Origin: a virus
Taxonomy: Duplodnaviria; Heunggongvirae; Uroviricota; Caudoviricetes
Length of the DNA stretch: 22,560 nt
IMG/VR virus record: IMGVR_UViG_2896028454_000001
Span: 67,450 to 90,009 of that record
Direction: 5' to 3' (one strand)
The position numbers and the translations under genes are program-made. Shown piece after piece: positions 5,584-22,560 of this stretch. The stretch's first letter is position 1; each line of letters begins with the position of its first letter. The notes under the pieces are model-generated. The model saw only the letters and a list, made by a program, of their open reading frames with translations, was not told the DNA's origin and ran no database searches.

Positions 5584-8500
5584 GTGGCCACCACCGTTGG
5601 TGCCGTCTGGCTCAACGTCCTCCCGTCCATGCGCGACTTCACGAAGAAGCTGACCGGGGACGCCACCGACGCCGCCGCGAAGGCCGCGAAGATGTCCGGG
5701 TCCAAGCTCGGGGCGGGCATCGTGGACGAAGCCTCCAAGGAGGTCAAGAACACCAGCGCGAAGGCCGCCCGCCAGGCGGGGGAGAAGGTCGCTGACGAAG
5801 CCGCGTCGGCGGCCACGAAGAAACTCCCGAAGGAACTCGGTAAGACCGGCGACACGGCAGGCCGGGCGTTGGGTGACGCCCTGACCAGGTCCACCACGAC
5901 GGCCACCCGGGACGTGGTCGCAGCGGTCACCAAGACCACCGAACGCACCCTCCCCGCAGCCATGTCCGCCCAGGCGGGGAAAGCCGGTGAACAGGCCGGG
6001 GCCGCGATGTCCCGGGCCATGGCCTCCTCGTACCAGACGCCCACCGGCGGGTTCACGGGGTGGGTGTCCTCGGCTACGTCGGCCGCTCGGGAAGCCGGGG
6101 CGTCCGCCGCGTCCGCTCTCAGCTCTACGTTCTCGTCGGCCGGTCCCGCGATCACCACGGCCCTGACCGGCGCTGTGGGCGGTGCGATCGCTGCCGCGTC
6201 CCGCGAAGGGGTCGCCCAGGCCGGGGCTGCGTGGTCGTCGGCCGGTGCGGCGATGGCCGCCGCCGGGCAGCAGACCACCGCGTCTCTGTCGGTGCCGATG
6301 GCGGCGTTCGGCGCGATCACGCTGAAGACCGCGGGCGACTTCGAGCAGCAGATGAACCGGGTCCGTGCCGTGTCGGGTGCGACCGGCGCCGAATTCGACA
6401 GCCTCAACAGCTTGGCCCAGGAGTTGGGCGCGTCCACCCAGTACTCGGCGTCTGAGGCTGCGGACGCCATGGGGTTCCTGGCCATGGCCGGGTTCGAGGT
6501 TGACGAGATCTTGTCGGCTCTGCCCGGCACGTTGGACCTGGCTGCTGCGGGTGCGATCGACCTCGCTGACGCGGCGGACATCGCCTCGAACATCCTGACC
6601 GGGTTCGGGTTCGAAGCGGAAGAACTGGCCCGGGTCAACGACATCCTCACGGCGACGTTCACCAACTCGAACGTCAACATGACCCAGCTGGGCTACTCGT
6701 TCAAGTACATCGGCCCTGTTGCGAACTCGGCCGGGTTGCAGTTCGAGGAACTGGCTGCTGCGGTCGGCTTGCTGGGCAACGCCGGTATCCAGGGCGAGAT
6801 GGCCGGTACCGCGCTGCGTGGCGGTATCAGCCGACTGCTGAAGCCCACCGGGGCGGTCGCGGACACCCTGGACATGCTCGGGGTGTCCGTCCAGGACTCG
6901 GCCGGGAACATGCGGTCCCTCACCGACATCTTCGCCCAGCTCGAAGAGGCCGGGGCCACCACCGCCGACATGCTCACCATCTTCGGTCTCGAAGCGGGCC
7001 CGGGGATGATGGCGCTCCTGGAGCAGGGGTCGGGCACCCTGTCCGACTTCACCACGGAGTTGGAGAACGCCGGGGGCACCGCCGGGCGGATCGCGGACAT
7101 CCAGATGGAGGGCCTGAACGGCTCCCTGAAGGAACTGCGGTCCGCGTTCGAAGGGCTGCTGCTCGCGATCGCGGACTCCGGGATGTTGGAGACCGTCACC
7201 GGCCGGGTCGAAACCCTGACCGGTGTCATCCAAGACCTGTCCGCCACCAACCCGGAACTGCTGAACACCGCTGCTGGGTTCGTTGGGTTCCTCGCCGCGA
7301 TCGGCCCCATCTTGTGGATCGGCGGCCGGGTCGCGGGCACCATCGGCACGCTCACCACCGCTGTGCACTCGTCGGCGAAGTTCGTCGGCTTGGCCGTGGA
7401 CGGGTGGAAGGGCGCCGGGACCGTGTGGGCGGCGGGGACACCGTTGGTCACCCGGCTCACCGCCGCGATCCGCACCCAGTACCTCGCGTTGAAGTTGCAG
7501 GCCGCGATGACCAACCGGTCCACGGCGGCAATGATCCTGCACAACACCTGGTCGAAGATCGTCCGTGGGGCCACGTTGGCGTGGCAGGGCGCCCAGTGGT
7601 TGCTCAACGCGGCGCTGAACGCCAATCCCATTGGGTTGGTGGTCATCGCGATCGCCGCCCTTGTCGCAGCGGCGGTCCTGGCCTACCACCACGTGGACGC
7701 CTTCCGCGTGTTCGTGGATGACCTGTGGGCCTCCGCGAAGGTCCTGATCGAGCAGCTGAAGCCGCTGGCGCCGGTGTTCCTCCGCATCGCGAAGGTCACC
7801 ACGCTGATCGCGTTTGGCCCGCTGATCGCCGCGTTCCTGCTGCTCCGCACGGTGGTGCGCGCCGCCTGGCAGGTGCTGGAACCGGCGTGGGTGTGGCTGG
7901 TCGACTACTGGGATTCCACCCTGGGCCCCAAGGTCCGCGCGGTGGGGGACTGGTTCGTCCGCATGGGCGACCGGATCAGCGACGCGTGGGGCCGGCTGGT
8001 CGGCTTGTTCCGTGACCCGCCGACGTTCGGTGAGCTCGCGGACAAGCTGAAGGCCGTCGGGTCGGATGTCGCCGGGTGGTTCAAGGCCCGCGCTGCTGAC
8101 GTGGGCGCGTGGATCAGTGACCTGCCCCGCCTCATCTGGGAGGGCGGCAGCGGCCTCGGAGAGTCCTTCCTGGGGCTCCTCCGAACGATCCTGGACCCGG
8201 CCACCCTCACCGGGATCGGTCAGGGTATCGCCGGGCACATCACCGGCGGGTTGGACTGGCTGCTCGACCAGGCCCAGCTTCTCCCCGGGAAGCTCCGCCC
8301 GAAGCTGGAGGCCGCGGCCACCGCTGTCGTGGAGTGGGCTCAGGCCCTCCCCGGCCGGATCGAAGCGAAGGTGTCCGACCTGGCCGGTCGGGTGTCGGAT
8401 TGGGCTGCTGAGGTCGGTCCGCGCATCGTGGCGAAGCTGCGGGGTGCGGGCGAGGACATCGCTGCCTGGTTCAAGGCGTTCCCCGGGCGGGTCCGGGACT

Positions 8501-10695
8501 GGGTGGACATCGACGCCGTGGTGGCGTGGGCCTCCGAGATCCCGGGGCGTATCCGCGGCCTGGTCGACATCGACGCCGCCGTGGCGTGGGTGCTCGACAT
8601 GAAGGACCGGGCCATTACCCGTTTGGGTGAGGTCGCCGTGTCCATCATGGAATGGGCGCGCGGTTTGCCGGACAAAATCCGGGGTTGGATCGACAATGCC
8701 GCGAAGGTCAAGGACTGGTTTGTTGAGTGGGGTCCGAAGATCCTCGCGGGTTTGGCTATCGCCGTTCTCGTGGTGGCTTTGGCGATCCCAGCGTTGTTCC
8801 TTTCTATTGGTGCGGCGATCCTTTTTGTTCTCGGCGTTATCGTCGTTGAACTCGGCCAGTGGCTTTGGGAAAAGTTCACTGGGCTGATGGAGACCGCTGC
8901 GGCAGCGCTCGCGGCGAAGGTTTCCTCTGTTGGCGCGAAATTCAGGCAGGTCCGTGATCAGGCTGTTTCGGCAGTCCTGAATTTGCGTGACCGGGTCCTG
9001 GGTTTCTTTGCGAATTTGCGCGACCGGTCCGTTGTCGCCGCGACCAGTTTGCGTGACCGTGTGACTGGTGCTTTCACGAACGCCCGTGACTGGGCTGTTG
9101 CCCGGGTGACGGGGTTGCGTGATCGTGCTGTGGCTGCGCTGGTGTCGGCTCGGGATCGTGGTGTTGCTGCGGTCCTGGGGTTGCGTGACCGGGCGACGTC
9201 GTTGGCGACGAACACCCGTGACTGGGTGGTCTCTCGGGCGACGTCGCTGCGTGATCGGGCTGTGGGCGTCCTGGAAAATTTCCGGGACAAGGCCATTGCT
9301 GCGTTCGATAAGGCGAAGTCGGGAATTGAAACGGCCTGGAAAAAGGTCGAGTCAATTACCAAGAAGCCCGTCTCTTTCATTGTTAACACTGTTTACAATG
9401 ACGGAATTCGGGCCACCTGGAACAAGGTGGCCGACCTTGTCGACATGAAAAAGCTCGGCCGCATCAACGGCTTCGCCACAGGCGGCATCCTCCCCGGGTA
9501 CACCCCCGGAAGGGACCCGCACAAGTTCTTTAGCCCCACAGGTGGGCGACTGGAACTGTCCGGCGGCGAAGCCATCATGCGCCCCGAATTCACCCGAGCA
9601 GTCGGCCCGGGGTGGGTCAACGCCATCAACGCCGCCGCCCGCACGGGTGGTGTCGGCGGTGTGCAAACAGCGCTCGGCTTCGCCAACGGCGGCGTGTACA
9701 CCGGACCCGTCCAACGGTTCAACGAGGGCGGCATCTTCGGACGCCTGGCCAGCTTCGGCTCCAGCTTGAAGGACATCTTCGACGGTGACGGGCTCGTGGC
9801 CGCCGCCCGCAAGGTGCTGGACCCGCTCATCGAAACCATGCGCGGCAAGTTCACCGAAGGCCGGTGGGCGGAAGCCATGGTGTCCGTGCCCAAGGTGATG
9901 CTGGACAAGCTGCTCGGCTGGTTCAAGAACACCATCGGGGGCAAGCTCGGCGGCACCGGCAAGGCCGTCGCGGACAACGCCCGCAAGTACGTGGGCCTGT
10001 CCGGCAACCCGAACCAGTTCACGAACGCGTTCGGCATGGACGGGCTGGCCTGGTGCGCCATGTTCGTGTCGGAGATGATCCGCGAGGTCAAGGCCGAAGC
10101 CGCGTACAACAACGTGCGCTCCGCGGCCGTCGCCTCGTTCGCGAACAGCTCGCTGAGGTCGGTGTACGGGGTGGGCAACACCCAACCCGGTGACCTCGCC
10201 GTGTACCGGGGCAAGGGCCCCGGGAACTGGGGTCACATCAACATCGTCGTGGACAAGCACGGCGGCACCATCGGCGGCAACGAGTCCAACAGCGTGAAGT
10301 TCTCCTCTGGCTACTCGGCCAGGGCAACGAAGTTCATGCGGCCCAAGGCCCTGGCCATGGCCACTGGCGGCATCTGGGACCAGGACCAGGCGTTCAACAC
10401 CACCGCCACGACCCCGCCGCTCACACGGATGCTGCGGGCCCTCGACGCCGTCCCCACCTTGTACGACCGGGGCGGTTGGCTGATGCCCGGACTCCAACTG
10501 GTCGCCAACCAGACCGGCCGTCCGGAACCGGTGCTCACCGACCGGCAGTGGGCGGACATCCGCTCCGCCCGGGAGGAACGGCGCCGTGAACGCCCCACCC
10601 AGACGTTCAACATCCACGAGTCCCGCAACCCGCGGGTGACCGCACGCAAGGTCGTGACCGCCCAGTCCGACTGGGACGCATTGCACCCGGTCTGA
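5584..10695 (+). CDS. Tape measure protein with C-terminal CHAP-like peptidoglycan hydrolase
   Basis: 1703 aa. TP901-type core (FEQQMNRVRAVSGAT...TQYSASEAADAMGFLAMAG), hydrophobic segments, 11-residue repeats, GFATGG motif, and WCAMFVS...GDLAVY...GHINIV. Confidence 0.95.
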   Translation: MATTVGAVWLNVLPSMRDFTKKLTGDATDAAAKAAKMSGSKLGAGIVDEASKEVKNTSAKAARQAGEKVADEAASAATKKLPKELGKTGDTAGRALGDALTRSTTTATRDVVAAVTKTTERTLPAAMSAQAGKAGEQAGAAMSRAMASSYQTPTGGFTGWVSSATSAAREAGASAASALSSTFSSAGPAITTALTGAVGGAIAAASREGVAQAGAAWSSAGAAMAAAGQQTTASLSVPMAAFGAITLKTAGDFEQQMNRVRAVSGATGAEFDSLNSLAQELGASTQYSASEAADAMGFLAMAGFEVDEILSALPGTLDLAAAGAIDLADAADIASNILTGFGFEAEELARVNDILTATFTNSNVNMTQLGYSFKYIGPVANSAGLQFEELAAAVGLLGNAGIQGEMAGTALRGGISRLLKPTGAVADTLDMLGVSVQDSAGNMRSLTDIFAQLEEAGATTADMLTIFGLEAGPGMMALLEQGSGTLSDFTTELENAGGTAGRIADIQMEGLNGSLKELRSAFEGLLLAIADSGMLETVTGRVETLTGVIQDLSATNPELLNTAAGFVGFLAAIGPILWIGGRVAGTIGTLTTAVHSSAKFVGLAVDGWKGAGTVWAAGTPLVTRLTAAIRTQYLALKLQAAMTNRSTAAMILHNTWSKIVRGATLAWQGAQWLLNAALNANPIGLVVIAIAALVAAAVLAYHHVDAFRVFVDDLWASAKVLIEQLKPLAPVFLRIAKVTTLIAFGPLIAAFLLLRTVVRAAWQVLEPAWVWLVDYWDSTLGPKVRAVGDWFVRMGDRISDAWGRLVGLFRDPPTFGELADKLKAVGSDVAGWFKARAADVGAWISDLPRLIWEGGSGLGESFLGLLRTILDPATLTGIGQGIAGHITGGLDWLLDQAQLLPGKLRPKLEAAATAVVEWAQALPGRIEAKVSDLAGRVSDWAAEVGPRIVAKLRGAGEDIAAWFKAFPGRVRDWVDIDAVVAWASEIPGRIRGLVDIDAAVAWVLDMKDRAITRLGEVAVSIMEWARGLPDKIRGWIDNAAKVKDWFVEWGPKILAGLAIAVLVVALAIPALFLSIGAAILFVLGVIVVELGQWLWEKFTGLMETAAAALAAKVSSVGAKFRQVRDQAVSAVLNLRDRVLGFFANLRDRSVVAATSLRDRVTGAFTNARDWAVARVTGLRDRAVAALVSARDRGVAAVLGLRDRATSLATNTRDWVVSRATSLRDRAVGVLENFRDKAIAAFDKAKSGIETAWKKVESITKKPVSFIVNTVYNDGIRATWNKVADLVDMKKLGRINGFATGGILPGYTPGRDPHKFFSPTGGRLELSGGEAIMRPEFTRAVGPGWVNAINAAARTGGVGGVQTALGFANGGVYTGPVQRFNEGGIFGRLASFGSSLKDIFDGDGLVAAARKVLDPLIETMRGKFTEGRWAEAMVSVPKVMLDKLLGWFKNTIGGKLGGTGKAVADNARKYVGLSGNPNQFTNAFGMDGLAWCAMFVSEMIREVKAEAAYNNVRSAAVASFANSSLRSVYGVGNTQPGDLAVYRGKGPGNWGHINIVVDKHGGTIGGNESNSVKFSSGYSARATKFMRPKALAMATGGIWDQDQAFNTTATTPPLTRMLRALDAVPTLYDRGGWLMPGLQLVANQTGRPEPVLTDRQWADIRSAREERRRERPTQTFNIHESRNPRVTARKVVTAQSDWDALHPV

Positions 10696-10738: not shown

Positions 10739-11698
10739 ATGCCCATCGTCTACCTGCCACCCACACCACCAGGTAGGCCCGGGGTCGGGCTCCCTCCCCG
10801 CCCACCCGACTACACCACCCGCATCACCTGGACCTCCTCGGCCGGGAGGGTCACCACCCTCACCGACTGGCGGGACGGGTACACGCTGTTGGACGGGGCC
10901 CGAGGGTTGGGGATGCCCGAGTACGAGTTCTACCGGCGCGTGTCGGGGGTGCTCGACGGTGACCAGGTCGCGGGGGTGCGCGCCCTGTCCCGGGAGATTT
11001 TCCTGCCCATCCGTGTCCACGGCCGAGACCGGGGCGACATCATCGACCGGCGCCGCCGGTTGGCCGCTGACCTGGACCCGATGGACGTCAACGGCGGCGG
11101 CCGAGGCGTGTTGACCGTCAAGGAGTTCGACGGCACCTCCCGGCGGATCGTCGCCCACTACGAAGCCGGTGCTGAAGGCGAGATGGCCCGGGACGTGGAG
11201 GGCCTGTTGTGGGCCACGTTCGGGCTCACCTTCCGCGCCGAACAACCCTTCTGGGAGCTGGACCCGGTGGAGATCATCTACCGGGGGCCGGCCAACGACG
11301 GCCGGTCATGGCTGCCGATCCTCCCGCTTCAGGTGCGCGAGTCCGCGGCGATCGGCCCCGGTATGGGGATCAGGGTCGCCGGGTCGGTGCGCACGTGGCC
11401 GGTGTGGACGTTGAAGGGCCCGATCGCGCCGGGGGCCCGGCTGGAAAACGTCACCACGGGGAAGTGGATGGAGATCACCGCCCCGTTGGAGTCGGGGGAT
11501 GAGCTGGTGATCGACACCCGGCCGCGCCGTAAGTCGGTGCGGCTCAACGGTGACCGGGCGTACCAGCACCTCGCGCACCCGGGTTCCACGCTGTGGCCGC
11601 TCCCGCCGGGAGCCAACACGGTCGACGTGACCGCGTCCGGGTTGGCGGAGGAGTCTCGGCTGATCCTGCGGTACACACCGCTTGCGCCGACAGCATAA
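10739..11698 (+). CDS. Distal tail protein (Dit, siphovirus tail component)
   Basis: First gene after the tape measure. Motifs LDGARGLGMP, FGLTFRAEQPFW, LVIDTRP and LWPLPPGANTV. Confidence 0.85.
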   Translation: MPIVYLPPTPPGRPGVGLPPRPPDYTTRITWTSSAGRVTTLTDWRDGYTLLDGARGLGMPEYEFYRRVSGVLDGDQVAGVRALSREIFLPIRVHGRDRGDIIDRRRRLAADLDPMDVNGGGRGVLTVKEFDGTSRRIVAHYEAGAEGEMARDVEGLLWATFGLTFRAEQPFWELDPVEIIYRGPANDGRSWLPILPLQVRESAAIGPGMGIRVAGSVRTWPVWTLKGPIAPGARLENVTTGKWMEITAPLESGDELVIDTRPRRKSVRLNGDRAYQHLAHPGSTLWPLPPGANTVDVTASGLAEESRLILRYTPLAPTA

Positions 11699-11930
11699 AA
11701 GGATGGGCTTGGCCGTAGAGGTGTTGCGCTGTTGAAGATTGTCAACACACACAAAAGTCTTCAACGTAGACGGCCCCGAAAGACCGTTGATATGAAGCGT
11801 TGTTGAAATGCACCAACACATACAAAAGGCTTCAACGTAGACAGCCCCGAAGGGCCGTTAGGTCGCTTGCCTCAAACGCAAGGTCAGAGATCCAAACAAC
11901 TACCTTCAACGTGGACGGCCAAGCCCACTC
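11697..11930 (-). ncRNA. Candidate structured ncRNA / CRISPR-like mini-array with 71-nt periodicity
   Basis: Low-GC intergenic island. CTTCAACGTRGACRGCC at 11759, 11830 and 11904. UUCG hairpins on the minus strand. Terminal inverted repeat GGGCTTGGCCGT (11705-11716) / ACGGCCAAGCCC (11915-11926). Ends in UUUU on the minus strand. Confidence 0.6.
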
Positions 11931-11935
11931 CCCAA

Positions 11936-11964
11936 ACAGTAGTCGCACCCTACGACACCCGCAA
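11936..11964 (-). promoter_or_regulatory. Candidate sigma70/HrdB-type promoter for the minus-strand RNA
   Basis: TTGCGG (11964-11959), 17 nt, TACTGT (11941-11936). The predicted start (~11929-11930) coincides with the edge of the element. Confidence 0.5.
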
Positions 11965-11987
11965 CCGGTCCGAGGAAGAAGGTGGGC

Positions 11988-13178
11988 ATGGACGAATGGA
12001 CAATCCGGGTACGCGACGCGAACCGGGAGATGATCGGCGAGATCGACGACGAACAAGAGCTGGAGATCCGCGACCGCCACCTCGGCCACGGGGCATGGAA
12101 GATTGTCGCGGACGCCGACACCGACTCCGCGGCCCTCCTCGAAGAGGGCGACGGCATCGTGTTCGAGATCAACGGCCAGACCGTGTTCTCCGGGCCCATC
12201 ACCCGGCACGTCGCCGAAGTCAGCGACGACGAAGCCGGGACCGACCGGCCGGACGGCGCGGAAACCGTCACCTTCACCGGCATCAGCGACACCAGCGCGT
12301 TCCGTCGCATCATCTACCCCGACCCCACCCGGGCCATCACCACGGCGGGAGTGAAACACCCCGTCGACCGCACCACCCTGCGCGGCCCCGCCGAAACCGT
12401 CATCGGCACCCTCATCGACCAGCAGGCCGGGCCGTCCGCGCTCCCCACCCGCCGCCACCCCGGCCTGGTCATCCCCACCAGCCAAGGGCGCGGCCCCCAC
12501 ATCACCAGCTCGGAACGGTTCACCGACCTGCACGAGCACGCGTTCGCCCTGGGCGCCGGGGCGAACCTGGGTTGGCGGGTGATCCAGGACGGGACCGACC
12601 TGGTGTTCGGCGTGTACCAGCCCCAAGACCTCACCGACCAGATGGGGTTCTCCGTTGAGCTCGGCAACGTCGACACCTACACCTACGAGCTGACTCCACC
12701 CGAGGTCACCCACCTGATCATCGGCGCCGGAGGGCAAGGCAAGGATCGGCTCCTGTTCCAGTACACCCAACCCTCCCCGCTGTGGCCCGGCCTAGTCATC
12801 GAGGAGTTCAAGGACTCCCGCGACTTGAAGCAGGCGCCGGACGGCCCGGACGACACCGAGTGGGTAGACCCGGCCGTGGCCAGCGCCCAGCAGGCCGAGG
12901 AACGGTTCGCGGAGGCCGCCGCACAGCAAACCGTCGCGTTCGACCTGCTCCCCACCGAGGGTCTGGTGTGGGGGACGGATGTTGGCCTGGGCGACCGCGT
13001 CAACTTCGACACCCCCCGCGGGGTCGTGGTTGACCTGATCCGTGAGGTCGTCTACCACCGCACCCCCACGGACGGGCAGCGCATCACCCCGATCGTCGGC
13101 GACGAGATCCACATGCCTGCCACCTACCGGGCGTTGCGCCGGTTGCGCCGAGAGGTCGCCCGTCTGGCCGCCGCCTAA
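11988..13178 (+). CDS. Minor tail / baseplate hub protein (Tal, Gp37-like)
   Basis: Follows Dit. Motifs WTIRVRDAN, VFSGPI, TVTFTGISD, IIGAGGQGKDR and WGTDVGLGDRV. Start is ATG 11988 or GTG 11982. Confidence 0.82.
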   Translation: MDEWTIRVRDANREMIGEIDDEQELEIRDRHLGHGAWKIVADADTDSAALLEEGDGIVFEINGQTVFSGPITRHVAEVSDDEAGTDRPDGAETVTFTGISDTSAFRRIIYPDPTRAITTAGVKHPVDRTTLRGPAETVIGTLIDQQAGPSALPTRRHPGLVIPTSQGRGPHITSSERFTDLHEHAFALGAGANLGWRVIQDGTDLVFGVYQPQDLTDQMGFSVELGNVDTYTYELTPPEVTHLIIGAGGQGKDRLLFQYTQPSPLWPGLVIEEFKDSRDLKQAPDGPDDTEWVDPAVASAQQAEERFAEAAAQQTVAFDLLPTEGLVWGTDVGLGDRVNFDTPRGVVVDLIREVVYHRTPTDGQRITPIVGDEIHMPATYRALRRLRREVARLAAA

Positions 13179-19392: not shown

Positions 19393-19746
19393 CTACCCGC
19401 GACCCACCTGAGCACCCTTTAGAAGCTCACGGACCCGCGACGGTGGCACCCCAGCGGCAGTAGCCACATCGGCGCAGGTCACCCTCTGCGCACCTAGAGA
19501 CCGCACGACTTCCACAACCGCAACCTCATACGCCTCCCGGGCCTCGTTCACCGCTGTGATCTGTGGCGAAACCGGGACCACCACCACGTCCGCGGGCTCA
19601 TCCACCACCAACGCGAGCGCACTGGCCGCCGACTTCTTCACCTCTCGCAAAGTCCGGCCGTGCACGTACACGCCGGAACCCTCCACCTTGCCGACCCATC
19701 TGCGGCCCTTACGCTTCACAACCACCCGGTACGAGCACCCCATCAC
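19393..19746 (-). CDS. hicB: HicB-like antitoxin with C-terminal HTH
   Basis: YRVVVKRKGRRWVGKVEGSGVYVHGRTLREVKKSAASALAL fits the HicB N-domain pattern (GxTxxE). The C-terminal CADVATAAGVPPSRVRELL is HTH-like. GTGA overlap with the upstream gene. Confidence 0.62.
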   Translation of the reverse strand: MMGCSYRVVVKRKGRRWVGKVEGSGVYVHGRTLREVKKSAASALALVVDEPADVVVVPVSPQITAVNEAREAYEVAVVEVVRSLGAQRVTCADVATAAGVPPSRVRELLKGAQVGRG

Positions 19747-20942
19747 CCAACCTCCAGTACGTCCGCGATGATCCGATCCGCCAGCTCGTCAGGGAGTGGG
19801 CCACGCGGAACCGTGAACTCGTGCCCGCCCGCCCTGTACATCACGTGCGTGTCGGAGGACCGCACGGTTCGAACCCCCCAACCCCGGGTGCGGGCAGGCT
19901 CCCGAACCCGGGAAATACCGCCGTCCGCACGGTTCTTCAGGTTCGCGGTGACCTCCTGGGTAGCGGCCCATTCCTGGATGGTGATGATGCGCGGGTGCAC
20001 TTCCCTGGGAGACCACACCCACTCGCTGATCGGGTTGATCCGCCCACCCCCTGTGCGGCTGGCCTTGCGGTTGTACACCTGGTAACCGGTCAGCTTGGGG
20101 TTGGCCAACAACCCCTCCACCCGCTGGATCGTCCACTCCCCATCGACTGGGTACAGGTCCGGCCGCGAGTTGCAGAAGAACGCGATGTCCTCGCCCCGCA
20201 TCCGCTCCTTAAGACGCAACCGGAACAGCTCGGCCGCCGCAACCTGCCTGCGTTCGTCGGGGTGGAACGCCAACTTCTTCTTCGGCCGCCGCGGGCCGAA
20301 CCGTTCCGGTTGCGGAGGGGCGTTCTCATCGACCACCGCGATGTAGGGGTAGGGCGGCCGCCCGTGGTTCCACCCGTTGGTCGTGTGCTGGACTTGGCCG
20401 CCCATGGACATCTCCAACAGGGCGTACCGGTACACTTCGGCATCAACCTGGCTGTACCGCCTGGTGCGCAACTGGCCAGTCTTCGTGCCGCCGACCGGTT
20501 CGTTGGCGTACACCACCTCCACACCCAGCTTCTCCAGCTCGTGTTCCACGGTGAGGCTGGTCAGCATGGCACGCGCGACCCGGTCGGAGCGTTCAGCGAT
20601 CACGTGGGTGATGCCGCGGTGCTCGGCCTGGTCCAGGAGTTCCTGGAGCCCGCCGTCCCGGGGGACGGGGACCGCGAGGGTGTCGTACATCTCCGTGGTG
20701 CCCAGGCCGCGTAGCTCCGGGGGGAGCATCCCGGACTCGACGTCGTAGAAGTGCGCGACGAACTGTTCGCCGTCCTGCAACCGTTCGGAGGCCAACGCCA
20801 CCTGGCGGGGGATCGACGACCGGGGGTCCTGGTTGTCCTTGGTGGAGACCCGGCCAGCGAACGCGACCCGGCGGGGACGGAGGTCGGTGTGCGCCCAGCC
20901 GGGTACGCCGGTGAGGTCGATGGGTGGGCCGTACTGCGACAC
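19743..20942 (-). CDS. Serine recombinase (resolvase + recombinase domains) with HicA-like C-terminus
   Basis: Catalytic RVST, ERSDRVAR, GRPPYPY and LLANPKLTGYQVYNR. No Cys zinc ribbon. The last ~60 aa (DTHVMY...FTVP...RII) look HicA-like. Confidence 0.85.
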   Translation of the reverse strand: MSQYGPPIDLTGVPGWAHTDLRPRRVAFAGRVSTKDNQDPRSSIPRQVALASERLQDGEQFVAHFYDVESGMLPPELRGLGTTEMYDTLAVPVPRDGGLQELLDQAEHRGITHVIAERSDRVARAMLTSLTVEHELEKLGVEVVYANEPVGGTKTGQLRTRRYSQVDAEVYRYALLEMSMGGQVQHTTNGWNHGRPPYPYIAVVDENAPPQPERFGPRRPKKKLAFHPDERRQVAAAELFRLRLKERMRGEDIAFFCNSRPDLYPVDGEWTIQRVEGLLANPKLTGYQVYNRKASRTGGGRINPISEWVWSPREVHPRIITIQEWAATQEVTANLKNRADGGISRVREPARTRGWGVRTVRSSDTHVMYRAGGHEFTVPRGPLPDELADRIIADVLEVG

Positions 20943-20954
20943 AGGTGTGCCTTT

Positions 20955-21320
20955 CTACTCGGGGAACTCGATACGCAGGTGGGGGATGAGACGGGCAACA
21001 CGCGCAGCCACGGCCCGGTGCCAGGCGGCCGGGTAGGCGGCCAGGTCCGGGCGTGCGGCATGGAACGCGGTGTCGTCGCGGTACACGGTCAAGGTCGGGT
21101 CGTCCTGCCCTTGGAGGGTGGCTGCCAGCTCCTCCACGAACACGGTCGTGGTCTGCTCCAAAGAGCGGATCTCAGCGGCAACCCCGTCCGGCACGTTGTA
21201 CTTGCCGGTCTCCCAGTGGCGGACGGTACGGCCCGACACCGGGGGCGACAGGTACCCGGCAAGGGCGTCGCCGGTGAACCCGAGACCTTCGCGGATGACC
21301 TTGATTTCGGCAGGGGTCAC
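20955..21320 (-). CDS. DUF1870/Aca2-like HTH regulator
   Basis: TPAEIKVIREGLG...VSGRTVRHWETGKYNVPDGV...PTLTVYRDD...RPD...WHRAVAA parallels Aca2 as I recall it. GGAGG before GTG 21320; alternative ATG at 21359 or 21356. Confidence 0.7.
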   Translation of the reverse strand: MTPAEIKVIREGLGFTGDALAGYLSPPVSGRTVRHWETGKYNVPDGVAAEIRSLEQTTTVFVEELAATLQGQDDPTLTVYRDDTAFHAARPDLAAYPAAWHRAVAARVARLIPHLRIEFPE

Positions 21321-21391: not shown

Positions 21392-21919
21392 CTAGCGGGA
21401 CAGGGCGGGGGATGGCGGGACCACCGGGACGGGGTCCTCGTCGTGGTCGCCGCGGCCGTGTGGGCACCACGGGCACCACGGTTGGAGGCGCTGGTGCAGG
21501 TCCAGGGCGAGCAGAGACCACGCGAACAGGGCTCCGATCAGAGGGCCGCCTGCCCAGGGTTGCCACATCAGGGTCGACAGCAGCACGGCCACGGTGACCA
21601 TGCTGGCGACCATGAGCAGCCAGCGGGGCCGGTCGGCGAGGCGGTGCACCATTCGCAGGGTGCGGGCGTGGCGGGCGGCGTCCTCGGACGGGGTGAGGGT
21701 CATCCCAGCGAAGCAGCGTTCGCAGATGCGCCCCTGGTGCCAACGGTGGTAGACGATCAGGGATGTGATGGCGGTCGCCCCCAGGGCCGCGACGGCGGCA
21801 GACCCGGCGGGGTGAATGGGTGGCTGGCCTTCGATGGTGACAAGGGCACCGGCCAGGGAGAAGGAAGCGAACGCAGCCCCGGCGGACAGCTGCGCGGAGT
21901 AGTGGATAGTCCAGTTCAA
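21392..21919 (-). CDS. Membrane protein with two CxxC motifs
   Basis: About four hydrophobic segments, with HQGRICERC and HQRLQPWCPWC. TTG start after GAGGA. Confidence 0.7.
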   Translation of the reverse strand: MNWTIHYSAQLSAGAAFASFSLAGALVTIEGQPPIHPAGSAAVAALGATAITSLIVYHRWHQGRICERCFAGMTLTPSEDAARHARTLRMVHRLADRPRWLLMVASMVTVAVLLSTLMWQPWAGGPLIGALFAWSLLALDLHQRLQPWCPWCPHGRGDHDEDPVPVVPPSPALSR

Positions 21920-21990: not shown

Positions 21991-22560
21991 TTAGGTGAGC
22001 CGAGTGACGGGCGTGTGCAGGGCCACGGCGGGGGTGCCCCAGGGGCCGGTGCGTTCCCAGCCGGCGTCAGTGAGGGCTAGGTCCGCAATCTCGCGGAGCA
22101 GAGCGGCGGGGATAACCTCGTTCACGCGGACCGGCAGGTCGATCACGATGTCGTCGCCGATGGTGAGGGTGTGCCACTGGGCGCCGAGGTCGAGGGTGGC
22201 GTCCTGGTTGATCAGGTCGGGGTCGTGGCGCTCAACGATCGCGGCGAGGTCGATGGTCTCGATGATGGCCGTGATGTTCAGCTGGCCGAGTTCGTCGTTC
22301 AGGTCCTCGTCCCAGCCGTGGTTTTCGGCGTAGTAGGGGCCGTAGAACTCGTTGCCGTTCAGGGTTACGCCGTCGGGGAGGGCGGCGTTGATGGCGTCCC
22401 GGTACGCGTCAACCATCGCGTTGAAGTGGCCCTCTTCGTTGACGCGTTCCAGCCACTCGGAGGAGCCGCCGCTGATGTACGCGGCAACGGTGGCCTCGAC
22501 GGTCAGTTGGGTGCGGTCGCCGTGGTTGTTCCAGGTGCCAAAGGATGTGGTGGTGGTCAT
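21991..22560 (-). CDS. Acidic hypothetical protein (first visible gene of the leftward operon)
   Basis: 189-aa ORF with high-GC3 codons, rich in D/E/N. The ATG is at the window edge, so the true start may lie outside. Confidence 0.7.
   Translation of the reverse strand: MTTTTSFGTWNNHGDRTQLTVEATVAAYISGGSSEWLERVNEEGHFNAMVDAYRDAINAALPDGVTLNGNEFYGPYYAENHGWDEDLNDELGQLNITAIIETIDLAAIVERHDPDLINQDATLDLGAQWHTLTIGDDIVIDLPVRVNEVIPAALLREIADLALTDAGWERTGPWGTPAVALHTPVTRLT

Follow-up and report, generated by a model that had tools for sequence, protein, structure and literature searches.

A mini-array of type I-G CRISPR repeat mimics between two tail genes of a Nocardiopsis prophage, a candidate RNA anti-CRISPR

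The 22,560 nucleotides of DNA analysed here (the window; positions 67,450 to 90,009 of IMG/VR record IMGVR_UViG_2896028454_000001, our record G000) form the final 22.5 kb of a 90-kb provirus, a Nocardiopsis prophage, and carry on their minus strand a short element whose units mimic the repeats of type I-G CRISPR arrays. We propose that this element is an independently transcribed mini-array of CRISPR RNA (crRNA) mimics that would act as an RNA anti-CRISPR (Racr) against the type I-G systems of Nocardiopsis, as a decoy or hijacker resembling Racrs or viral Cracr arrays, and from sequence comparison we put the probability of this reading at about 0.55. Racr RNAs and well-expressed non-targeting crRNAs weaken interference by competition (Camara-Wilpert et al., 2023; PMC10651486), and it is this precedent, together with the expected loading of the phage RNAs onto the host proteins Csb2 and Cas7g, that leads us to rank an RNA anti-CRISPR function first. 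A preliminary description of the element had offered an RNA anti-CRISPR, a mini-array hijacking host Cascade or an undescribed repeat-RNA system; the first two are kept, with computation making no choice between them, and the third is not called for.

The element (11695-11966; Table 1) consists of two complete 36-nt units, U1 and U2, and two flanking half-units. Each complete unit has a 7-bp stem with a UUCG loop, followed by CUAC and then GUUGAAGN, and the U1 hairpin has a folding energy of -11.5 kcal/mol. A repeat search shows the half-units to lie at the inner side of an inverted repeat of 13 bp without mismatch (11704-11716 with 11915-11927), whose closing duplex has an energy of -29.3 kcal/mol, and the last 18 nt of the upstream half, U0, agree with the host repeat consensus AGCCGTCCACGTTGAAGG at all but one position (17/18). 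On re-reading the sequence, the unit coordinates and sequences first reported were all correct, as were the stem starts at 11858, 11787 and 11716, which give an exact 71-nt period, and the lengths of the inter-unit segments (38, 35 and 35 nt); the repeat search recovers the same period as a 71-nt direct repeat of 76% identity (11713-11783 and 11784-11854). The GTCYACGTTGAAG tail occurs three times in the 90-kb record, every copy lying inside the element, and the G+C content of the element is 52%, compared with 68-70% in its surroundings. The z score of the predicted fold is about -3 for either strand; no Rfam family reaches its gathering threshold across the whole window, and the region itself yields noise alone at E values up to 10.

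Table 1. Features of the mini-array and of the tail genes beside it, in window coordinates
Feature	Position	Strand	Description
Tape-measure gene	5584-10695	plus	Tail module
Dit, distal tail protein gene	10739..11698	plus	Left flank; Pfam SPP1_Dit PF22768, E = 4.8e-11
U-rich tail	11695..11703	minus	UCCUUUUAU; possible transcript end, from sequence only, immediately behind the closing stem; shares positions with the Dit stop codon of the opposite strand
Split repeat, 3' part	11704..11722	minus	ACCUCU, then arm ACGGCCAAGCCCA (11716-11704) pairing with 11927-11915; contains the 5' half-unit ACGGCC from 11716
Pseudo-spacer S2 (35 nt)	11723..11757	minus	UCUUCAAC within it can base-pair with the handle before it, GUUGAAGA
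Unit U2 (36 nt)	11793-11758	minus	DNA: ATATCA, ACGGTCT, TTCG, GGGCCGT, CTAC, GTTGAAGA; RNA: AUAUCA, ACGGUCU-UUCG-GGGCCGU, CUAC, GUUGAAGA; covariance model 25.6 bits, full model length
Pseudo-spacer S1 (35 nt)	11794..11828	minus	25/35 identical to S2
Unit U1 (36 nt)	11864-11829	minus	DNA: GACCTA, ACGGCCC, TTCG, GGGCTGT, CTAC, GTTGAAGC; RNA: GACCUA, ACGGCCC-UUCG-GGGCUGU, CUAC, GUUGAAGC; covariance model 25.2 bits
Pseudo-spacer S0 (38 nt)	11865..11902	minus	Internal hairpin CUUGC...GCAAG
3' half-unit	11920-11903	minus	GGCCGT-CCAC-GTTGAAGG; upstream of U1, read from sequence
Split repeat, 5' part (U0)	11903..11927	minus	Arm UGGGCUUGGCCGU (11927-11915), CCAC (11914-11911), 8-nt handle GUUGAAGG (11910-11903)
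Candidate promoter	11936..11964	minus	TTGCGG (11964-11959), 17 nt, TACTGT (11941-11936); read by eye
Tal-like tail gene, Sipho_Gp37 family	11988..13178	plus	Right flank; Pfam PF14594, E = 2.4e-43

Searching 51 Nocardiopsis genomes with the element recovered genuine CRISPR arrays, in which the 37-nt repeat is composed of GTCTCAAC, a stem of 7 bp whose loop varies, GTCYAC and GTTGAAGG, and the spacers are mutually unrelated and 32-39 nt long (mean 35.5). These arrays flank a three-gene operon encoding Csb1/Cas7g, Csb2 (TIGR02165, 265 bits) and a Cas3g with the type I-G extension, which identifies the system as type I-G; Csb2 is present in 6/51 of the genomes. A covariance model built from 77 host repeats, whose E values are rough, matches exactly the two complete phage units (E about 1e-3 in 63 kb), always in the minus orientation, and finds nothing besides them in the window or the 90-kb record. 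The phage copies diverge from the host repeats chiefly in the first six bases and in a loop one base shorter, and they agree with the best host repeats at 28-30 positions, the mean for a host-host pair being 27.2. On these comparisons the units belong to the Nocardiopsis type I-G repeat family, their pairwise similarity lying within the host range, so that the kinship with host-lineage repeats envisaged at the outset is found by the covariance model and by pairwise counts alike. The type I-G enzyme Csb2 recognizes a stem of 7 bp and cleaves the RNA 4 nt 3' of this stem, so that a handle of 8 nt is left, and the protospacer-adjacent motif (PAM) of the system is TTN (PMC9638904); the phage units have exactly this substrate geometry of 7-bp stem, 4 nt and 8-nt handle. 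The type I-G architecture proposed when the element was first described was correct, as the published geometry and the genes adjoining the Nocardiopsis arrays show.

The element is also kept in a second phage, represented by IMG/VR contig L010, in the same order of tape-measure gene, Dit, element and Tal. The L010 version is shorter by one 71-nt unit, retaining the promoter-like block, the 3' half-unit, S0, one complete unit (26.7 bits in the covariance model), one S segment and the 5' half-unit. Flanking coding DNA is 76-80% identical between the two phages, whereas the promoter and leader block (11966-11928) is identical at 37/39 positions, U0 at 24/25, the complete unit at 34/36 (U2 against the single L010 unit) and the tail segment at 25/28, with both arms of the closing stem unchanged. 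Pooled, promoter, repeats and tail are identical at 120/128 positions (94%; P = 3.7e-6 against a 79% background), compared with 71-83% for the pseudo-spacers (27/38 for S0, and 29/35 for S2 against its L010 counterpart), and this uneven identity indicates that purifying selection acts on the repeats and ends and not on the 'spacers'. The hairpin-GTTGAAG unit is thus conserved in a related phage, as the preliminary description had supposed it should be, and this retention and the exact match of the covariance model to both units carry the mini-array beyond chance. Wider searches added no other relative: the element and the 6 kb around it have no BLAST match in phage records, an IMG/VR scan with the repeat-tail pattern returned L010 as the one true relative and four chance matches, a second scan with a hairpin-plus-tail pattern returned L010 and one chance match, and the five matches in a single metagenome scan all fall in one unrelated coding sequence.

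The element is strand-specific, and the pattern of substitutions points to an RNA made from the minus strand. Wherever the stems of U1, U2 and the L010 unit differ, the change is C to U, which on the minus strand leaves a G-U pair but on the plus strand an A-C mismatch; changes in the S0 hairpin and in the pairing of the L010 handle with its anti-handle likewise, by our reading, preserve pairing on the minus strand only. A plus-strand reading was rejected on account of these mismatches and of the lack of any covariance-model match there. In actinomycetes the -10 box follows the rule TANNNT, and on this basis a candidate promoter was read by eye (Table 1), with an overlapping alternative -10 box, TAGGGT, at 11952-11947 (also by eye). 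Transcription is predicted to start near A11929, 1-2 bases ahead of the closing stem. The U-rich tail at the other end is not called by a terminator scanner.

In the scheme that we favour, the minus-strand promoter would give an RNA of about 235 nt, running roughly from 11929 to 11695, the ends of which would pair through the 13-bp stem and so restore a repeat-like stem, the third, ahead of CCAC and GUUGAAGG. As the rebuilt stem base (ACGGCC/GGCCGU) and CCAC-GUUGAAGG equal those of the host repeats, cleavage by Csb2 would furnish all three segments with a handle on the 5' side and a hairpin on the 3' side. Host Csb2, a Cas5-Cas6 fusion, would bind the three stems and cut 4 nt 3' of each, releasing crRNA-like RNAs, three in all and about 74, 71 and 69 nt long, that would each have an 8-nt GUUGAAGN handle, a pseudo-spacer of host length and a 3' hairpin. 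By occupying Csb2 and Cas7g these would leave fewer complexes charged with genuine phage-targeting spacers; the pseudo-spacers may also, in the manner of Cracr RNAs, direct the complex they have captured to a promoter of the host, although no such target was found. A more elaborate version, which we entertain only tentatively and consider unlikely, sees the split repeat as a design for a 'closed' mini-array, an architecture not known from CRISPR arrays, Racrs or Cracrs, which would supply n guides with n hairpins, shield the ends and possibly halt transcription at the U-tract, and in which structured pseudo-spacers pairing with their own handles trap Csb2 in dead-end complexes, not Cascade. 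Were that so, type I-G would have its first RNA anti-CRISPR in this element, and Csb2 would be shown to ignore the loop.

When 260 spacers from six I-G loci were compared with phage sequences, one from Nocardiopsis genome G003 matched the portal gene of the provirus (PF04860; G000:C1:64720-64754, 2.7 kb before the window) at 32/35 positions with a TTC PAM, all three mismatches falling at third codon positions. Spacers from genome G012 match tape-measure genes, that of the N. eucommiae prophage L012 at 29/36 and that of L010 at 29/38 positions, both with TTC, matches that are borderline given 260 queries. Judging from these alignments, the phage family is targeted by Nocardiopsis type I-G spacers. 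A second G003 spacer resembles G000:C1:5541-5575 (30/35) in an unannotated open reading frame (ORF), where it is preceded by TGC. About 9 kb from the element the window also encodes a regulator of the Aca2/YdiL family (PF08965, 42.5 bits; 20955-21320, minus strand). Two co-oriented proteins upstream of the Aca2 gene (21392-21919 and 21991-22560) match no family and could form with it an acr-aca operon.

The plus strand of the window carries a siphovirus tail module of tape-measure, Dit, Gp37/Tal-like and lysin genes, and the element lies in the 289-nt gap between Dit and Tal, antisense to both (the start of the Tal-like gene was set at ATG 11988 by homology to the prophage in L012). In the Nocardiopsis eucommiae prophage (L012; Dit 81% identical) and in 8 further prophages of the family Dit adjoins Tal with no element between. 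In L151 (G207:C1), a related prophage with 71% identity in Dit, another insert occupies the junction, and this seems to be a small gene. Ten related prophages thus lack the element, nine with adjacent Dit and Tal and one with another insert, which marks it as a moron inserted at a hot spot, and gene order indicates that the Dit-Tal junction is a recurrent moron site. Reading the 13-bp terminal inverted repeat as that of a miniature inverted-repeat transposable element or other transposon was rejected, no second copy being found in the 90-kb record or the 51 Nocardiopsis genomes and no target-site duplication being seen; a 17-nt look-alike at G000:33598 lies inside a gene and was discounted. 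The 32-35 kb region of the record is itself mobile DNA.

Several features separate the element from a bona fide CRISPR array. In place of adjacent cas genes and a leader it is flanked by Dit and Tal, and its upstream sequence is unlike host leaders; its description as 'cas-less' holds as far as Csb2, the sole cas family searched for in the 90-kb record. Nor are its spacers unique and unrelated. The three segments had been taken for independent spacers, but duplication of the whole 71-nt unit, with 76% identity between the copies, makes S1 and S2 paralogous to each other (25/35, 71%), and their first 15 nt are alike but for one transition. The same 15 nt are common to S1, S2 and the L010 pseudo-spacer, with the differences clustering past position 15 (Fisher P = 0.02, 0.01 and 0.2), which a structural constraint could explain as well as a shared target. 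The segments are also structured. The S0 hairpin is kept in L010 through C-to-U and A-to-G changes that, as we read them, give G-U pairs on the minus strand only; handle and S2 together fold at -11.7 kcal/mol, a pairing that L010 UCUUCGAC retains through a U-G pair; and each handle can pair with UUCRAC within its own segment. Such internal structure argues, short of proof, that the RNAs would be something other than ordinary guides.

The targets first sought for the three segments among phages, host-lineage genomes and cas promoters did not appear: no protospacer for S0, S1 or S2 was found in the phage's own genome, 50,697 phage records, plasmids, IMG/VR (exact patterns of parts of S0-S2) or the 51 Nocardiopsis genomes (S1/S2 seed patterns). 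Self-targeting finds no seed with a TT PAM in the phage genome. Relaxed BLAST gave chance matches only, one to an E. coli phage 19-mer and others to Lactiplantibacillus plasmids, and in IMG/VR the 15-nt spacer prefix gave chance matches of at most 19 nt and masked S0 and S1/S2 patterns gave none. The six Nocardiopsis I-G loci, including the intergenic regions between csb1 and the leader, contain no seed with a TTN PAM, the locus of the provirus's own host not being among them, and genome-wide seed matches in Nocardiopsis stand at the level of a reversed-pattern control. Two candidates were set aside as chance-level. One is TTC and 10 nt of S1 in the promoter of a response regulator of OmpR type, MtrA-like in our view, the site being conserved in five I-G genomes; the other is TTT and 14/15 nt of S2 where contigs of G003 end, in a flank presumably just 3' of ribosomal RNA operons. 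As Nocardiopsis phages are poorly sampled, this absence of targets is weak evidence. The first of these sites belongs to a motif, ACTTCATTCCTTTTGTATGCTTTCTGTTACCA (L219, L209-L212; five I-G genomes), that carries the S1 TTC and 10 nt upstream of a long-leader OmpR-family gene and may be a regulatory target.

A number of points count against an RNA anti-CRISPR. Transcription, processing by Csb2, loading onto Cas proteins and inhibition are all predicted steps, and the provirus's own host is presumed to have a type I-G system from the occurrence of such systems in Nocardiopsis genomes. The phage units score 25-27 bits in the covariance model, compared with 31-62 bits for true host repeats, and U1 departs, within its first six bases at the 5' end, from the host repeats at two positions that are invariant in them, so that recognition by Csb2 is not assured; the split repeat, a 13-bp stem with no loop, is only a putative substrate. 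A promoter scanner of the E. coli type finds no promoter, which leaves the proposed one resting on a consensus read by eye. The element occurs in two phages only, which are close relatives, and neither closing stem nor promoter shows covariation between them. Finally, a role as decoys only would leave unexplained why S1, S2 and the L010 pseudo-spacer have kept their first 15 nt in common.

A possible, though on balance unlikely, alternative is that the element is a working mini-array for inter-phage conflict whose real guides load the host I-G Cascade and direct Cas3g at rival phages or plasmids, shielding lysogen and prophage alike by superinfection exclusion; S1 and S2 could then guide against two alleles of one target. 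Every segment would receive a handle and a 3' hairpin, segment lengths of 38, 35 and 35 nt fall within those of host spacers, the units lie within host repeat diversity, and an antisense position in a late operon suits expression from a silent prophage. What speaks against it is the lack of a protospacer in any of the collections searched, the paralogy of S1 and S2, which are not independent acquisitions, and the conserved internal structure of all three segments, including pairing with their own handles, which is unexpected for guides. The structured segments, the strong fold with its 13-bp closing stem and a position exactly between two late genes, overlapping the Dit stop codon, could instead be those of a structured RNA with an antisense or regulatory role, or of an element acting as DNA, descended from CRISPR repeats and no longer with any Cas role, serving for example to control Dit and Tal or to stabilize the late transcript. 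We think this improbable, since the parts conserved most strongly are those that a Csb2 substrate needs (stem base, CYAC and GUUGAAG), related phages manage without any element at the Dit-Tal junction and nothing in Rfam matches it. That the element is an inert, decaying scrap of a host CRISPR array, brought in by illegitimate recombination, would account for degenerate repeats, two duplicate 'spacers', the failure to find cas genes (Csb2 being the one searched for) and the want of targets; we give it very little credence, as repeats, promoter and ends have been held above the identity of the neighbouring genes, every stem change is wobble-compatible and the complementarity of the ends reaches 7 bp past the repeat-derived arm.

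The kind of element to which we assign the mini-array is already known, in the form of viral mini-arrays, solitary units or Racrs, and Cracr arrays. Like the Racrs and viral solitary repeat units of Camara-Wilpert et al. (2023; PMC10651486), it is a host-repeat mimic in a cas-less prophage with a candidate promoter close by, and by analogy its expected action would be competition for Cas6-type and Cas7 proteins. It differs from Racrs in that the units are not solitary, two complete and one split unit with spacer-length segments between them lying within 225 nt, and one complete unit and two halves making up the L010 version. Type I-G solitary units in viruses are already present in the supplement of that paper, in the accessible part of which none contains ACGTTGAAG; its main text reports no type I-G Racr test and leaves I-G unmentioned.

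With Cracr arrays and prophage regulatory mini-arrays (Shmakov et al., 2023; PMC10120712) the element shares its carriage by a phage, the lack of cas genes, degenerate repeats around spacer-like segments and the several units per transcription unit (here predicted), and in its paralogous pseudo-spacers the PAM-proximal part is the better conserved. In viral Cracr arrays a single spacer occurs in several versions directed at differing versions of a locus (Liu et al., bioRxiv 10.1101/2024.10.29.618823), and one prophage mini-array has been recorded that contains three repeats and two spacers of almost the same sequence; these precedents and the shared PAM-proximal 15 nt of S1, S2 and L010 make the Cracr model attractive. 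Cracr arrays have at least nine PAM-proximal matches to a cas or creT promoter, however, and the phage element has none in the six I-G loci. The Cracr types described in the accessible parts of this literature are V-A, I-F, I-E, I-C and I-B, not I-G, and the same parts describe no split, end-paired repeat in Cracr or regulatory mini-arrays.

Virus-borne mini-arrays of inter-viral conflict, as reviewed in PMC11656645, resemble the element in having one to few spacers, no cas genes and a dependence on host Cas, but their repeats are identical to those of the host and most of their spacers match related viruses, whereas here the repeats are diverged, two of the spacers are paralogues and no match was found. 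The I-G arrays of Nocardiopsis and of Thioalkalivibrio sulfidiphilus (PMC9638904) have the same 36-37-nt repeats, 7-bp stem, 4 nt, 8-nt handle ending in GUUGAAG and 71-73-nt period; unlike them, the phage element lies inside a tail operon without adjacent cas genes or a host-like leader, and has two full repeats only and non-unique spacers.

What is new is an example from type I-G and the actinomycetes accompanied by host arrays that match it and by host spacers directed at its phage family, a split, end-paired repeat and structured paralogous pseudo-spacers. Type I-G is, to our knowledge, the least studied of the type I CRISPR systems. In the Racr, Cracr and mini-array literature cited here we found neither a viral regulatory array for it nor an RNA inhibitor that has been tested against it. 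The locus is a compact candidate (about 235 nt) with a matched natural setting, comprising host arrays of the same family, a portal-gene spacer, a TTC PAM and an Aca2-family regulator. Should the element be only a decoy, it would add one further example of a known phage trick.

The host repeats are themselves unusually heterogeneous, with 225 distinct sequences among 269 (L024/L025 in G012, L026/L027 in G026, and L163-L169), hypervariable loops and many compensated stem changes; GTCTCAAC and GTCYACGTTGAAGG are invariant. Hypervariable loops and these fixed ends suggest that Csb2 reads the stem base and flanks and not the loop; together with the end-paired split repeat, they suggest reading of the stem base and 3' flank, which would be useful for short I-G guide cassettes in actinomycetes. 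In each I-G locus (L025:1162-7976 and its counterparts in five other genomes) csb1, csb2 and cas3g stand between two divergent arrays; none of cas1, cas2, cas4 and csx17 was seen among the scanned ORFs of these loci, for which no dedicated search was made. One repeat-spacer unit of the G012 array (L025, about 120-300; spacer CCAGACGAGG...) is tandemly doubled, so unit duplication such as that in the phage element also occurs in genuine arrays. A tyrosine integrase is encoded near the same locus (L025:13053-14354). In the window, a 399-amino-acid serine recombinase with Resolvase and Recombinase domains (19743-20942, minus strand) lies beside a small gene without a family match (19393-19746).

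Repeats are also found outside arrays in Nocardiopsis. A single canonical I-G repeat occurs at the same chromosomal site in two genomes without Csb2 or an array (L202, G046:C162:13032-13068; L204, G041:C80:19473-19508); a tRNA-like gene, recognized by eye, lies alongside on the opposite strand, and the repeat looks like the last relic of a lost I-G island. In L028 (G046:C171) two intergenic hairpins on the minus strand (7606-7645 and about 8030-8060) resemble the phage units, with the form CTTCAACGG...CTGTCTACGTTGA, the first scoring 26.5 bits. Both stand just upstream of a co-stranded small gene in a genome without Csb2, and may be solitary units in another mobile element.

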